DNA of 64,000 nucleotides from sequence record ON645936.1. One strand, written 5' to 3'. The first letter of the stretch is position 1, and every line of letters starts with the position of its first letter. Below the pieces are notes generated by a model that was not told the origin of the DNA, searched no databases, and was given only the letters and a program-made list of their open reading frames with translations. Shown here piece after piece: positions 3 through 62,971 of this stretch. Source of the stretch: Escherichia phage N2. The position numbers were made by a program, and so were the translations under genes.

Positions 3-350
3 TGTCCACATTGCGGTAAGTCTGGATTAAGCGGGAATATGAATCGATGGCATTTTGATAACTGCCCAAATCACCCCAATCCTAAAGTTAGACCGCCAAT
101 GTCTAAAGAACACAGAAATAATATCTCAAACGGGCTTAAAGCAATCGTTCTTGAAGAAACATCCTGCGAATTCTGCGGAATGATAGGCAAGAAATGCGTT
201 ATCGCAGCGCATAGAAATTTCTGCAAGAAAAATCCAAATGGACGCAAGAAAACTGAAAAGACTGGTACTTGCGTCCATTGTGGTAAAGTTACCACTTTCG
301 GAAATTTATCAAGATGGCATAATGATAATTGTAAATATAAACCTAGCTAA
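3..350 (+). CDS. HNH-family homing endonuclease, C-terminal part (5' end lies outside the window)
   Basis: Frame 3 is open from base 3; repeated Cys/His modules (CPHCG...RWHFDNC, CEFCG, CVHCG...RWHNDNC) resemble the C-terminus of the HNH ORF at 62159-62971; opposite strand to flanking gene 46. Confidence 0.5.
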   Translation, partial: CPHCGKSGLSGNMNRWHFDNCPNHPNPKVRPPMSKEHRNNISNGLKAIVLEETSCEFCGMIGKKCVIAAHRNFCKKNPNGRKKTEKTGTCVHCGKVTTFGNLSRWHNDNCKYKPS

Positions 351-2031
351 TCTTAGCTAAACTAAATCTACCAACTTTTTCCATTTGAATGTGCTGACCA
401 TATTCCTGTGGGTCATGGTCTTTATGCGAAATTATGAAGAAGTTGGTATCCTTCAAACCATCTAAAATTTTAGCCACATTTTTAATACCTTCAGCATCAA
501 ATGCACCGTCATACACTTCATCAAGAAATAAACAACTTATTTTAACACCTGAAACTTTTTCAGCAATATCACGCCAAGTAAATAAAAGAGCAATATCAAT
601 TCGTGCTTTTTCACCTTGACTAAATGAAGCATAACTAAAATCTTCACGACCACGGGATTTAATTGTCTCATTAAATTCTTCATCTAATGTAAACACATAA
701 TCCGCTTCCATTATTTTAAGATAATGGTTAATCTGCTTATTAAATAATGGAATGTACTTTTTAATAATAGCGCCTTTAATACCAGAATCTTTGAGCATAT
801 CAGTCAAAATTCCTCTATGGTATTTTTCCATTACTAAATTAGTTTTTGTCTTAACAATTTTATCAAGTTCTTCTTGAAGCAGTGCTATTTCATCAGCATG
901 GTCAATAAACTCAGATGATGCTTTTTCTATAGCCGCTTTAACTTTTTTAGCTTTATCTACCGTCGTGATTAGAGATTGCTTTTTATTGCGAATATCATTC
1001 GCCAACGTCTGCTGGGTTTTAATATTATCTCGGTATTCGTCAACAAGAACTTTTAAATTATCACGATGTGTTGAAAGCTGTTCAAATGAATGCGTACATT
1101 CAGAAACTTTATCTTTAATTTTAGAAACAACTTTATCACCAGAACTTAATTGTGACAAACAGGTTGGACATAATCCACCTTCGTGATACATATTAATGAC
1201 TTTATTATACGAGTCAATTTTTGATTTAATTAAAAATGCTTCTTGACCGATTTTATTAAATGCATCAGTCGGGTCTTCATCCAAAACAATATTAACTAAT
1301 CTTTCATTAGCTTCTTCTATTTCCGATTTTAACGTTCTAGCTTCTTTCGCCAAATCATCATACATATTCTGCAGACGAGTAAGGTTATCACCAGTTAATT
1401 TTTTCTGGCGTTCAACGTTATCATTATATATTTTAATTTGTTGGATAATACTATCTTTTTTAACATCAAGCACTTGGTTTTGTGAATTTAATTCACGTAT
1501 TAGTGCTTTATTAAGCTTATCCATTTCAGCTAATGTTCCTACCTCAAGCAGGTCTTCCACAAGCTTTCTTCGCGCAGGGGTCGACAAACCCATGAAAGGG
1601 GTATACCCTGCTGTACCAAGGACAACAATCTGCTTGAAACTGGCATATGACATTCCGATAAGCTGTTCAAATTCTGCTTGGAAATCTTTACTGCTGGCAG
1701 ATTCATTAAGACGTGTACCGTTAACGGTGATTTCGAAAACGTTTGGTTTTTGTCCTCTTTTGATATAGTACTTTTTCTCATCATATTCCATCCACAGTTC
1801 AACTAAAAGTTCTTTCTTATTTGTGCTGTTTATTAATTGACCTTTCTTTACATCACGGAATGGCTTGCCAAAAAGCCCAAATGTGATGGCTTCTAACATA
1901 GTAGACTTACCACCGCCATTTCGTCCAGTAATAAGAGTTTTTTGAACCTTATCTAATTGAATGTCAACTCCATTTTGACCAACTGACATTATATTTTTAT
2001 ATTTTACTCTATTAAGTTTAAATGATTTCAT
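343..2031 (-). CDS. 46: recombination endonuclease subunit gp46 (Rad50/SbcC-like ATPase)
   Basis: 562 aa; Walker A GRNGGGKST; long coiled-coil; size and position match T4 gp46. Confidence 0.9.
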   Translation of the reverse strand: MKSFKLNRVKYKNIMSVGQNGVDIQLDKVQKTLITGRNGGGKSTMLEAITFGLFGKPFRDVKKGQLINSTNKKELLVELWMEYDEKKYYIKRGQKPNVFEITVNGTRLNESASSKDFQAEFEQLIGMSYASFKQIVVLGTAGYTPFMGLSTPARRKLVEDLLEVGTLAEMDKLNKALIRELNSQNQVLDVKKDSIIQQIKIYNDNVERQKKLTGDNLTRLQNMYDDLAKEARTLKSEIEEANERLVNIVLDEDPTDAFNKIGQEAFLIKSKIDSYNKVINMYHEGGLCPTCLSQLSSGDKVVSKIKDKVSECTHSFEQLSTHRDNLKVLVDEYRDNIKTQQTLANDIRNKKQSLITTVDKAKKVKAAIEKASSEFIDHADEIALLQEELDKIVKTKTNLVMEKYHRGILTDMLKDSGIKGAIIKKYIPLFNKQINHYLKIMEADYVFTLDEEFNETIKSRGREDFSYASFSQGEKARIDIALLFTWRDIAEKVSGVKISCLFLDEVYDGAFDAEGIKNVAKILDGLKDTNFFIISHKDHDPQEYGQHIQMEKVGRFSLAKIS

Positions 2032-2046
2032 TTTGTATCCAATTGT

Positions 2047-2901
2047 TCACAATGAAGAAAATTCTTTAACTAAAGCCTGTAATGAAGCCTCTATTGGATA
2101 TCCATTCTTAACTAACATTTTCCTAAACATCACATGTTTAGGACGATTATATGATATCCACAATTCATACAATTTATCTTTATTATCCCAATGATAGCCT
2201 TTTCGTCGAGATGCTATATGAGCTTTTCTAATCTCCGGATTTTTCCAACTAGCAGCTACTGAATTTGATATAGCTATTTTATATTCAGGTTTTGATAAAG
2301 CAGCGCGAACAGCCCTTTGGTGTTTAATTTTATTTTCTTCGTTATTAAACCATTCCCTTGAAGCCATTGAAATTTTTTGTTTTGTTTTAAAATTATTTAA
2401 TCTTTCTTTGTTATCTTTTCTATTTTTTGCTACTGAAAAATATTTTAATGCCCTTTCTCTAGCAGCATTTCTATTTTGCGGATTTGAATAATACTGTTGA
2501 AGCCTTTTTGATATTGTGTCACTTACATCTTGTTTTATAAAACTATATTCAGCAGCTATTAAATCAACTTCGGCTAAAGATAAATTTTTATATGTTTTTC
2601 CTGACATCATTCTATTTAAAGCATTTAGCATTTTTCCATTTTTACCTTTTGCTAATAAGAAATGTGCTTTGAAATGATTGAAATGACTTAAATTAACTAA
2701 ATTCCATGTAGATTTTAAATATTCAGGAAATATTGATTTAGGAAGCACGTGATGTGCTTCCGTTTTACCTGGAGTTTTAACAGTTGAATTCATAGAAATA
2801 AAATTAATGTAAGACTTGGCGTCTTCTTCGCTCAACACTAATTTTTCAACTAATTCCTTTATTAAAAATTCATCATTAATATCAAGTTTAAAATTCTTCA
2901 C
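2047..2901 (-). CDS. HNH homing endonuclease (Mob-like), inserted between genes 47 and 46
   Basis: 284 aa; GTG start with AAGGA 8 nt upstream; HNH motif EAHHVLPKS...N...H; C-terminal WKNPEIR-type repeats. Confidence 0.7.
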   Translation of the reverse strand: MKNFKLDINDEFLIKELVEKLVLSEEDAKSYINFISMNSTVKTPGKTEAHHVLPKSIFPEYLKSTWNLVNLSHFNHFKAHFLLAKGKNGKMLNALNRMMSGKTYKNLSLAEVDLIAAEYSFIKQDVSDTISKRLQQYYSNPQNRNAARERALKYFSVAKNRKDNKERLNNFKTKQKISMASREWFNNEENKIKHQRAVRAALSKPEYKIAISNSVAASWKNPEIRKAHIASRRKGYHWDNKDKLYELWISYNRPKHVMFRKMLVKNGYPIEASLQALVKEFSSL

Positions 2902-61203: not shown

Positions 61204-61219
61204 GGGGCCGCAAGGCCCC
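61204..61219 (+). terminator. stem-loop GGGGCC-GCAA-GGCCCC after wac
   Basis: 6-bp GC stem with GNRA loop; weak U-tract. Confidence 0.45.
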
Positions 61220-61232
61220 AAAGGATTTTTAA

Positions 61233-62162
61233 ATGTCAGGATATAATTCTCAGAATCCAAAGGAACTCAAAGATGTCATTCTAAGACGTTTAGGGGCTCC
61301 AATTATTAATGTTGAGTTAACACCCGATCAAATCTACGATTGCATCCAGCGTGCCCTAGAATTATACGGTGAATACCATTTTGATGGACTTAACAAAGGT
61401 TTTCATGTATTTTATGTAGGAGATGACGAGGAAAAATATAAGACCGGAGTCTTCGATTTAAGAGGTTCAAATGTATTCGCAGTAACTCGCATTCTCCGCA
61501 CGAATGTTGGATCAATAACGTCAATGGACGGAAACGCTACATATCCATGGTTTACTGACTTTCTTTTGGGAATGGCTGGTATTAATGGTGGCATGGGGAC
61601 TTCTTGTAATAGATTTTATGGACCAAATGCCTTTGGAGCTGATTTAGGGTATTTTACCCAGCTTACCAGTTACATGGGAATGATGCAAGATATGCTTTCG
61701 CCTATTCCAGATTTTTGGTTTAATTCAGCAAATGAACAACTCAAAGTCATGGGAAACTTCCAAAAATACGATTTAATTATCGTAGAAAGCTGGACTAAAT
61801 CATATATTGATACTAATAAAATGGTTGGAAATACAGTAGGATATGGAACAGTCGGTCCACAAGATAGCTGGTCATTATCTGAACGATATAATAACCCAGA
61901 CCACAATTTAGTTGGTCGCGTTGTTGGTCAAGATCCAAATGTTAAGCAAGGCGCTTATAATAATCGTTGGGTGAAAGACTATGCTACAGCTTTAGCTAAA
62001 GAATTAAATGGCCAAATTTTAGCACGTCACCAAGGCATGATGCTTCCTGGAGGTGTTACAATTGATGGGCAACGCTTAATAGAAGAAGCACGATTGGAAA
62101 AAGAAGCATTGCGCGAAGAACTATACTTGCTCGATCCTCCAGTGGGAGTGTTAGTTGGATGA
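61233..62162 (+). CDS. 13: neck protein gp13
   Basis: 309 aa, as T4 gp13. Confidence 0.9.
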
Positions 62163-62971
62163 ATTATACTAAAATTTACGACTCTCTTATAGAAAGATCT
62201 CTTAAAAGAGGTCTTAATAAGAAAAAATTAGATTATTATACAGAATCACACCATATTGTCCCAAAATCCATGGGAGGAGATGATTCTAGAGAAAACAAGG
62301 TTTTACTGACAGCAAGAGAACACTATTTTGCACATGAGCTTCTTTTTAAAATACACCGAAATTCTGAAATGGCTTATGCCTTAATAAAATTCTCCAAGGG
62401 TACAAAAGAGCAGAGAATTGTAAGTAAAGATTACGGATGGATTAAAGAGGAAACATCTAAAATTAGGTCAGAAACCATTAAAAAGTTTTGGGCGAATCTA
62501 TCACCAAATTTAAAACAGGAACGAATTAAAAAAGCCGGAAAAGGCATTAAAAAAACTAAATCTTTATGGACAGATGAAAAGAGAAAAGAAGTTAATGCAA
62601 ATATTCGAAAAGCTTCAGTGAAATATTTGGAATCGTTATCAGAAAACGAAATGTTAGAATATAAAGAAAGATGTTCTAAACAGATGAAAGATTTTTGGTC
62701 TGAGCTTAAAAGTGACCCCCAAAAATACGAAAAGTATTTAAATAAACTATCTAAGGGTCTTGCAAAAGTCGAAAAGAGAAATTGCCCGCATTGCGGAATT
62801 ATATGTGATGTAGGAAATTATGGAAAATACCACGGCGATAAATGCAAAGTTATCACGGGTGTATCTCATAGCAGAGAAAAATTAAAATGCCCGCACTGTT
62901 CTAAAATCATGGATAAGTCTCACGCTAAAAGATACCATTTTGACAATTGCAAATTTAAGAAGGTCGAATAA
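62159..62971 (+). CDS. HNH homing endonuclease inserted between neck genes 13 and 14
   Basis: 270 aa; HNH motif [12 protein letters not shown]...N...EH; C-terminal CPHCG...YHGDKC / CPHCS...RYHFDNC zinc-finger modules; 4-nt overlap with gene 13. Confidence 0.75.

Follow-up and report, generated by a model that had tools for sequence, protein, structure and literature searches.

The 64,000-nucleotide (64 kb) stretch of Escherichia phage N2 analysed here (sequence record ON645936.1; the whole stretch is referred to as the window) contains several homing endonuclease genes, and raises the question of whether enzymes with different catalytic domains use the same DNA-binding modules and, if so, where these modules came to be shared. 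An earlier note had drawn on four open reading frames (ORFs), all of which were found at the positions it gave. It claimed that the truncated ORF 3-350 and the HNH gene 62159-62971 carry the same Cys/His modules, that the HNH gene 2047-2901 and the GIY-YIG gene 46991-47857 share W-x-N-P-E-(Y/I)-R repeats, and that the endonucleases of this genome had shuffled their domains. The annotation of the window was extended from four to eight endonuclease genes, three of them HNH (Mob-type) and five GIY-YIG (Seg-type or intron-encoded), with the truncated ORF 3-350 being an HNH enzyme. The identity of the shared modules, their homology, their distribution and their predicted folds were established by sequence comparison and structure prediction. 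Very probably, the eight enzymes each combine a catalytic cartridge with a binding region assembled from a few shared modules, and the sharing goes back to ancient accretion and exchange across the whole family. The principle itself is already known from the NUMOD concept and from the fingers of I-TevIII, and is here rediscovered in genes annotated as homing endonucleases in GenBank; a minor new point is that two of the modules, a C-terminal tail and a tryptophan-containing (W-type) repeat, have no Pfam models.

Significant similarity was found between the C-terminal regions of ORF 2047-2901 and ORF 46991-47857, which have about 160 amino acids (aa) in common (BLASTP E=3e-8 over 184 columns). 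When aa 125-284 of the former were aligned with aa 100-288 of the latter, the Smith-Waterman score corresponded to z=15.4 and was reached by 0 of 1000 shuffles; the repeat part alone gave z=11.1 and the last ~50 residues alone z=6.1. Together, the shuffle z-scores and the BLASTP match indicate that the similarity is not a compositional artefact. The strict motif W-x-N-P-E-(Y/I)-R occurs once in each protein (WKNPEIR and WSNPEYR), and a loosened expression, W.[NDS][PD][EL][YFIW][RK], returned four matches, all in these two ORFs: WKNPEIR in 2047-2901, and WSNPEYR, WKSDEYR and WNDPLIR in 46991-47857. Further degenerate copies escape the expression, and the region in common is wider than the earlier note had seen. 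An AlphaFold2 (AF2) model of the C-terminus of 2047-2901 (mean predicted local distance difference test score, pLDDT, 94.2) consists of seven consecutive helices of 11-16 residues (2-15, 17-31, 34-44, 47-62, 64-78, 81-96 and 98-108), separated by turns of 1-2 residues at N/D/S-P positions and followed by a three-helix tail. Matches to this model in BFVD were homing endonucleases of both classes.

The tail is a module of about 50 aa at the extreme C-terminus, with the pattern W..(Y)DELY.LW...P....F...A...GYPD..Y, and is present in ORFs 2047-2901, 19922-20641 and 46991-47857 of the window as well as in T4 MobD, SegA and SegF. Pairwise comparison of the three window copies gave shuffle z-scores of 6.1, 9.2 and 6.5. 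In an alignment of tails from 13 HNH and GIY-YIG proteins, one R, two W and one F were invariant, and a G and a P nearly so. Tail-bearing HNH proteins include P0003, P0019, P0034, P0040, P0069 (which is T4 MobD) and P0084, and tail-bearing GIY-YIG proteins P0023, P0049 and P0089; the number of copies per protein ranges from one to three, with three at most in P0011 and P0017. AF2 predicts three helices for the tail (pLDDT at least 89), and no Pfam model matches it. Tentatively, the W-type repeat and the tail could be two nuclease-associated DNA-binding modules that have not been formally described, although the odds are rather against it. As judged from motifs and alignments, one and the same set of repeat plus tail thus appears in this window on an HNH enzyme (2047-2901) and on GIY-YIG enzymes (46991-47857 and 19922-20641).

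Regarding the catalytic parts of this pair, ORF 2047-2901 is similar to T4 MobD (BLASTP 7e-17 over 243 aa), with 37% identity at the C-terminus, and to ORF 62159-62971 (BLASTP 7e-9). ORF 46991-47857 was provisionally assigned to the GIY-YIG class by its match to PHROG 314 (1e-25), by BLASTP similarity to T4 SegF (4.5e-9) and to SegB (4e-8), which itself passes the Pfam GIY-YIG model at 28.5 bits, and by residues Y13, Y27, G29, E79 and N95, which are invariant in a 12-sequence Seg alignment. A Seg N-terminal profile found no relevant chain in the PDB, and TIGR01453 reached only 18.5 bits on this ORF.

The other shared modules identified by the earlier note are putative zinc fingers. A search of the six-frame translation of the 64 kb with the expression C..C.{8,16}H...C gave five matches, three in ORF 3-350 and two in ORF 62159-62971, and none elsewhere; the spacing was X12 in four of the five copies and X11 in one (CX2CX11-12HX3C). 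The two ORFs are similar to each other (BLASTP E=5e-7; Smith-Waterman score 106, shuffles averaging 30.8, z=12.6, reached by 0 of 1000 shuffles), and both resemble the remnant of I-TevIII in T4, ORF 3-350 with 38% identity over 63 aa (BLASTP 6e-7) and ORF 62159-62971 with 34% over 76 aa (2.9e-6), in searches of a 22-protein database. Spacing, tandem copies and homology all agree in assigning the five copies, on sequence grounds, to the I-TevIII-type C2HC fingers, which in the window would bind zinc and DNA. In the AF2 model of ORF 62159-62971 (mean pLDDT 81) each finger is a beta-hairpin followed by a helix, and the sub-threshold Foldseek leads for this model comprised classical, TRAF-type and UBZ-type fingers (E 0.2-4) and HNH domains.

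ORF 3-350 corresponds to the C-terminus of a 238-aa HNH enzyme known from close relatives, which are 98-100% identical over the comparable part and carry an N-terminal Mob-type HNH domain (MNYKLIYEKLI...YTESHHIIPRC...) that in the window falls outside. The full-length protein is similar to T4 MobB (BLASTP 1e-28); the Pfam HNH model gave it 16.9 bits, under the cutoff of 21.4, and an upstream unit, FSQETRKKMSDAV, matched Pfam NUMOD3 below threshold (E=0.14). This 238-aa protein and ORF 62159-62971 align over their whole length, starting at residue 1 (30% identity in 276 columns, E=7e-26), so that the two are whole-gene paralogues of the same class. Hence, the claim that the same modules are joined to different catalytic domains holds for the pair formed by repeats and tail, and fails for the finger pair of the window, since both of its members are HNH enzymes throughout. 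Outside the window, a finger of this type was found on the other class. A tblastn search with ORF 3-350 revealed that in the 'segD' protein of Vibrio phage nt-1 a GIY-YIG domain (28.1 bits with Pfam SegE_GIY-YIG, cutoff 25) precedes the C-terminal finger CPHCGKSGGKPAMNRWHFDNC, and the same finger is found in a SegG-like protein of Proteus phage PM2, probably also a GIY-YIG enzyme, the catalytic domain of which has no Pfam match. Finger 1 of ORF 3-350 is 81-86% identical to those of nt-1 and PM2.

In ORF 62159-62971 (Pfam HNH_4 25.6 bits, cutoff 22), AF2 places the HNH domain in strands 28-32 and 47-51 and helix 52-66, and predicts five helices (93-112, 116-135, 139-159, 162-185 and 187-201) in the linker between this domain and the fingers. 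These tryptophan-containing helices show a weak likeness to the repeats of the GIY-YIG enzyme 46991-47857 (Smith-Waterman z=5.2, with 1 of 1000 shuffles reaching the score), which points to a single enzyme combining both module types. Homologues of this ORF have one to three fingers interleaved with NUMOD3 units, and some (P0188) also have W-x-D-P repeats. As a separate comparison, C-terminal repeats common to the HNH enzymes 2047-2901 and 62159-62971 were considered and rejected (z=-1.2).

To place the W-type modules outside the window, 1.84 billion representative proteins were searched with a profile built from the three window C-termini, yielding 1421 matches at E<=1e-3 and 104 at E<=1e-10; the W-type repeat occurs in more than 1,400 clusters at 50% identity. 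A census of Pfam domains covering 137 of the top 150 matches found GIY-YIG in 33, plus six of LEM-3 type and one of SegE type, HNH in six and HNH_3 in four, the Vsr-like models DUF559, MTES_1575 and Vsr in six, five and three, respectively, TnsA-N in one and NUMOD3 in 14. Proteins such as P0009, P0062, P0094, P0100 and P0113 have perfect W-x-(N/D)-P-E-Y-R arrays with a period of about 17 aa, located N-terminal to a Vsr-like domain with the motif ...E.DG..WH. The W-type repeats thereby appear, by profile and motif, attached to three nuclease folds: GIY-YIG, HNH and Vsr-like.

The closest described counterpart of the W-type unit is NUMOD3/IENR2 (Pfam PF07460; Sitbon and Pietrokovski, 2003, as cited in PMC1564403 and PMC3239194), which corresponds to the minor-groove alpha-helix of the I-TevI DNA-binding domain. 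Both appear to be short helical units in tandem with the core E-x-(R/K)-x-K-(I/M)-S-x-A-x-K, and both occur on GIY-YIG, HNH and Vsr-like nucleases. The W-type unit, about 17 aa long, reads (D/N)-P-E-Y-R-x-K-M-S-x-A-x-K-x-x-W, as against S-x-E-T-K-x-K-I-S-x-A-x-K-G in canonical NUMOD3. They differ at both ends: the W-type opens with (D/N)-P-E-(Y/F)-R where NUMOD3 has S-x-E-T-K, and closes with W-x-(D/N) in place of G-K. In addition, the W-type is predicted by AF2 as consecutive helices of 11-16 residues, and escapes the Pfam NUMOD3 model. A register test was performed with 237 W-type and 136 NUMOD3-type units anchored only on the Glu-containing N-cap. At the un-anchored downstream positions, register 0 scored +0.27 bits per position and all 12 shifts were negative (-0.3 to -1.06), the consensus being DPEYRaKmSEa.Ke.W for the W-type and SEETRkKISeA.KGk for the NUMOD3-type. 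Moreover, units of both kinds follow one another in phase in P0100 and in SegB, where LWSTPEYREKF is directly in phase with the NUMOD3 unit HHTPETINKMKESH, and in P0034 it is canonical NUMOD3 units that separate the HNH domain from the tail. The W-type repeat is read here as a NUMOD3-like variant, the curated model leaving its family membership unproven.

A number of results weigh against these assignments. The earlier note had proposed a Pfam search for NUMOD modules as a check; the Pfam NUMOD3 model does not detect the W-type regions of 2047-2901 and 46991-47857 even at E<=10. A hand-built 17-position NUMOD3 hidden Markov model (HMM) did not rise above shuffles for 46991-47857 (215 of 500 reached the score), 19922-20641 (55 of 500), T4 MobD (51 of 500) or 62159-62971 (375 of 500); it was significant for SegB and nominal or marginal for 2047-2901 (16 of 500). 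The Pfam GIY-YIG model gave no match to ORF 46991-47857 at E<=1. Foldseek searches of the PDB found no match at E<=0.001 for the repeat-plus-tail model of 2047-2901 or for the model of 62159-62971, and PDB sequence searches with the three full proteins gave no relevant match; for the W-type repeats and the tail, both the fold and the binding of DNA are therefore predictions, made from models and from architecture. Finally, the W-type repeats are matched by the Pfam model of GerD, a spore protein that does not bind DNA.

This last point bears on a different explanation, in which the helical repeats serve as a structural spacer or oligomerisation rope, comparable to the GerD core or to the ruler-like linker of I-TevI, with specificity residing elsewhere. 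GerD is a trimeric alpha-helical rope, and its model scores above its own gathering score (29.5 bits) in some GIY-YIG proteins, with 41.0 and 42.6 bits; in addition, the I-TevI zinc finger serves to determine distance and does not bind DNA, and the dimer interface of I-TevIII lies in its C-terminal region (PMC1865063, PMC2988022). Nevertheless, the repeats fill the canonical NUMOD3 slot between nuclease and tail and interleave with NUMOD3 units (P0034, P0100), share the NUMOD3 register and accompany three nuclease folds, as DNA-binding NUMODs do, and among the seven matches returned by Foldseek there was no GerD structure. A purely structural role is therefore considered improbable. The match to GerD could reflect either a true relationship or a source of mis-annotation, and W-type repeats could be mis-assigned to the GerD spore-germination family. 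W-x-D-P-E-Y-R repeats of nuclease-linked proteins, among them P0004, P0005 and 55 others, are matched by this Pfam model (PF17898, spore germination protein core). In the repeat regions of the window itself, Pfam and NCBIfam gave only sub-threshold matches to unrelated helical families (GerD, GBP_repeat and TPR_TmcB).

With respect to the origin of the sharing, the proposal of the earlier note amounts to recent recombination, in which endonuclease genes of this phage swapped their DNA-binding segments. The presence of eight endonuclease genes in one recombination-prone genome, several of them with the same modules, speaks in its favour. In contrast, when the endonuclease genes of the window were all compared with one another by blastn (word size 7), nothing significant was found in the module-coding parts, the best matches being A-rich stretches of 43-46 nucleotides (nt) with ~80% identity and E~1e-3. 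The five finger-coding segments have 49-57% DNA identity, and protein identity within the module pairs is only 27-30%. Furthermore, each C-terminus has closer relatives of its own class in other phages; that of 2047-2901 is closest to T4 MobD, an HNH enzyme with 37% identity, and nearer to it than to any GIY-YIG gene of the window. The finger pair, for its part, consists of full-length paralogues of one class. The lack of DNA similarity, the low protein identity and the closer same-class relatives indicate that the sharing is ancient and family-wide instead of an exchange within this genome. Recent shuffling among the endonucleases of this genome is thus largely refuted and must be regarded as very improbable.

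Even less probable is convergence or a compositional effect, in which the W-x-N-P-E-Y-R likeness would come from low-complexity, basic sequence that tends to form helices and has an N-cap (N/D-P-E), without common ancestry, a condition also foreseen in the earlier note. In its favour, Lys, Arg, Glu and Ser abound in the repeat regions, unrelated helical Pfam models (GerD, STI1-HOP_DP, NPM1-C) match such repeats, and in most regions the HMM of the NUMOD3 unit fell short of significance. Against it, none of 1000 shuffles of the same composition attained the scores found (z=11-15), the collinear match runs on into the non-repetitive tail with its conserved residues, almost all of the 104 best profile matches are nuclease-linked and the agreement with NUMOD3 is register-specific.

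Under the preferred reading of a catalytic cartridge with exchangeable binding modules, each enzyme would consist of an N-terminal cartridge joined to an extended 'beads-on-a-string' DNA-binding region. The repertoire would include I-TevIII-type C2HC fingers, helical units of ~17 aa (NUMOD3 or W-type), the three-helix tail of ~50 aa and helix-turn-helix (HTH) units of the I-TevI/NUMOD1 type, and their distribution among the enzymes would stem from repeated, ancient domain accretion and exchange across the homing-endonuclease world and not from swaps among the genes of this phage. As judged by homology to I-TevI and I-TevIII, the modules would form an extended chain along 20-40 bp beside the gene's own insertion site in endonuclease-free phages, and the chain would position the nuclease to nick or cut. 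Recombinational repair would then copy the endonuclease gene into the cut genome, that is, intronless homing. Zinc binding, DNA binding and homing activity would accordingly be expected of the window enzymes by analogy. Such a design of cartridge and interchangeable modules, a textbook principle for phage homing endonucleases, explains the acquisition of new target sites and is the reason that these enzymes have served as scaffolds for engineered nucleases. Dedicated profiles for the W-type repeat and the tail would improve the annotation of phage and metagenomic nucleases.

Both the beads-on-a-string layout and the shuffling of catalytic and binding domains have been described in print (PMC2988022, PMC1865063, PMC1564403, PMC3239194): modularity is held to let GIY-YIG and HNH enzymes evolve specificity through such shuffling (PMC1865063), and 'different patterns of NUMODs' was the C-terminal architecture reported for homing endonucleases in a phylogenomic study of the GIY-YIG family (PMC1564403). 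I-TevIII has an N-terminal HNH domain and a C-terminal tandem CX2CX12-13HX3C, a motif established by experiment in this enzyme: two fingers with one zinc each that are needed for DNA binding (PMC1865063). It is the HNH enzyme from phage RB3's nrdB intron, and T4 keeps only a C-terminal remnant of it. The window ORFs 3-350 and 62159-62971 have the same finger spacing and both match this remnant, but their genes are free-standing (for ORF 3-350, as deduced from relatives) and located at other loci (45.2/46 and 13/14), whereas I-TevIII is intron-encoded. ORF 3-350 also differs in having three fingers, one of them X11, interleaved with NUMOD3-like units. I-TevI joins a GIY-YIG cartridge to an extended modular binding domain, which combines a zinc finger with an alpha-helix and an HTH (PMC2988022). 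Its two-part design recurs in the window, and ORF 10547-11377 has a sub-cutoff match to the Pfam model of its DNA-binding domain; unlike the C2HC fingers of the window, its linker finger is of Cys4 type and sets the cleavage distance, and I-TevI lacks both the tail and W-type repeats.

T4 itself provides precedents for the tail. MobD, a free-standing HNH enzyme, ends in the tail module HWQDYDLLYKLWIKLNRPKRGSFGTYISKLGYPKSNYHRLIVQF, preceded by 17-aa P-E-x-K-x-K-I-S units; the free-standing GIY-YIG enzyme SegA has the tail MWDNIEKIKEIWENSGKSGAIKLKKLAIEAGFPNKSYARMLEVF, and SegF carries one too. Its occurrence in MobD and in SegA and SegF means that T4 already shows sharing between HNH and GIY-YIG enzymes. 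The window genes are only 23-37% identical to these three and occupy other insertion sites (46/46.1, 5/5.1 and the nrdC region). In the EDxHD or Vsr-like homing endonucleases (I-Bth0305I, Hef), NUMODs lie N-terminal to a third nuclease fold (PMC3239194), and the W-type arrays of P0009, P0062, P0094, P0100 and P0113 have the same reversed order; the window, in contrast, yielded no enzyme of this class.

The features of the eight endonuclease genes are listed in Table 1.

Table 1. Endonuclease genes of the window and the modules assigned to them.
Feature	Position	Strand	Remarks
Mob-type HNH homing endonuclease gene, C-terminal 115 codons	3..350	+	RB32ORF054w, 'similar to mobB'; PHROG 655
Putative zinc finger 1 of ORF 3-350	3..65	+	CPHCGKSGLSGNMNRWHFDNC, CX2CX12HX3C
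NUMOD3-like helical unit between fingers 1 and 2 of ORF 3-350	96..143	+	PMSKEHRNNISNGLKA, read from sequence
Putative zinc finger 2 of ORF 3-350	165..224	+	CEFCGMIGKKCVIAAHRNFC, X11 spacing
Putative zinc finger 3 of ORF 3-350	270..332	+	CVHCGKVTTFGNLSRWHNDNC
MobD-like gene for an HNH homing endonuclease (284 aa), located between genes 46 and 46.1, absent from T4	2047..2901	-	PHROG 655, 8e-45
C-terminal tail module of ORF 2047-2901 (aa 237-284), three helices predicted	2050..2193	-	HWDNKDKLYELWISYNRPKHVMFRKMLVKNGYPIEASLQALVKEF
Helical repeat region of ORF 2047-2901 (aa 125-236), ~seven helices	2194..2529	-	YSNPQNR, LSKPEYK, WKNPEIR
HNH motif region of ORF 2047-2901	2662..2763	-	TEAHHVLPKS...NLVNLSHFNHFKAH; E/H/H/P/N/H columns invariant in alignment of three HNH proteins
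GIY-YIG homing endonuclease (276 aa), nrdG/nrdD junction	10547..11377	-	canonical NUMOD3 units and I-TevI-type C-terminal DNA-binding domain
I-TevII-like GIY-YIG ORF (256 aa), nrdD intron, NUMOD1-type HTH units	12676..13446	-	Pfam SegE_GIY-YIG 26.6 bits, NUMOD1 25.3 bits
Group I intron core in nrdD	13495..13730	-	Rfam RF00028, 70.6 bits, gathering score 50
Seg-like GIY-YIG homing endonuclease (239 aa)	19922..20641	-	W-type repeats nt 20078-20356 (including WKNPNHI) and tail module
Tail module of GIY-YIG 19922-20641	19925..20077	-	WQYEDELFELWKETKYGWRKFTKEAIKHGYPNEPYRSMVSTF
SegB (GIY-YIG), within tRNA cluster	37677..38342	-	96% identical to T4 SegB
Seg-like gene for a GIY-YIG homing endonuclease (288 aa), located between genes 5 and 5.1	46991..47857	+	catalytic domain ~nt 46991-47287
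W-type helical repeats of ORF 46991-47857 (aa 100-222)	47288..47656	+	WSNPEYR, ASPEYR, ENDPTLK, WKSDEYR, WNDPLIR; period ~17-18 aa
Tail module of ORF 46991-47857	47657..47854	+	PWISIEKVKKLWEDLGKPHPQKYKWFREKAIEHDLPDVSYNAILKAL
Mob-type HNH homing endonuclease gene (270 aa), exactly between genes 13 and 14	62159..62971	+	HNH motif nt 62240-62335
Helical linker/repeat region of ORF 62159-62971 (aa 91-205)	62429..62773	+	FWANLSP, LWTDEKR
Putative zinc finger 1 of ORF 62159-62971	62783..62845	+	AF2 beta-beta-alpha fold, residues 206-228
Putative zinc finger 2 of ORF 62159-62971	62888..62950	+	AF2 beta-beta-alpha fold, residues 241-263

The source of the window is a T-even (T4-like) phage: over nt 1-4400 its identity to T-even phages (Tequatrovirus: vB_EcoM_SYGD1, RB51, RB68, Aplg8) is 97-98.5%, and the gene order is T4-like from gene 46/47 through gene 13/14. 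Seven of the eight endonuclease genes are free-standing, ORF 3-350 by deduction from relatives, and one lies in the nrdD intron. Their distribution is sporadic: ORF 3-350 was found in 59 records and the C-terminal region of 2047-2901 (aa 125-284) in 70 (at least 95% identity), and most of nt 1-4400 is covered by only 119 of 802 matching records. At three of the insertion sites, 45.2/46, 46/46.1 and 13/14, T4 has no gene, and its segC sits after 5.1, not between 5 and 5.1. The HNH genes thus show the free-standing insertion between conserved genes and the patchy distribution that define the Mob-type.

Four GIY-YIG genes, 10547-11377, 12676-13446, 19922-20641 and 37677-38342, all on the minus strand, lie beyond those listed by the earlier note. 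ORF 10547-11377 reaches 33.8 bits with Pfam NUMOD3 (cutoff 20.4) and E=3e-4, under the model cutoff, with I-TevI_DNA-bd, and is similar to T4 SegD and SegC (BLASTP 1e-33 to 1e-34); the nrdG/nrdD junction that it occupies contains mobC in T4. The group I intron in nrdD was detected in a local Rfam run based on E-values, a run over the whole window at gathering thresholds having missed it. SegB is flanked, as in T4, by a cluster of eight tRNA genes (37600-38952, minus strand).

Some observations concern the neighbourhood and integrity of the HNH genes. ORF 3-350 is oriented opposite to the flanking genes 45.2 and 46 (gene 46 spans 343-2031 on the minus strand), and with its final 8 nt it runs into the 3' end of gene 46; in T4, segD is the one comparable case of an endonuclease gene on the opposite strand. 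ORF 2047-2901 is intact in the window, as it is in many relatives. The tblastn match to it is broken into two pieces in RB68 and T2, consistent with a frameshift, and the RefSeq record of RB51 has no gene annotated at this position; the gene appears to be decaying in some lineages. ORF 62159-62971 is inserted almost without a spacer: its start codon (ATG) overlaps the stop codon of gene 13 (62159-62162), and the ATG of gene 14, at 62973, comes after its stop at 62971, genes 13 and 14 being neighbours without an insert in T4. A longer, TTG-started ORF for gene 14 in the ORF list begins at 62940, which is probably not the real start.

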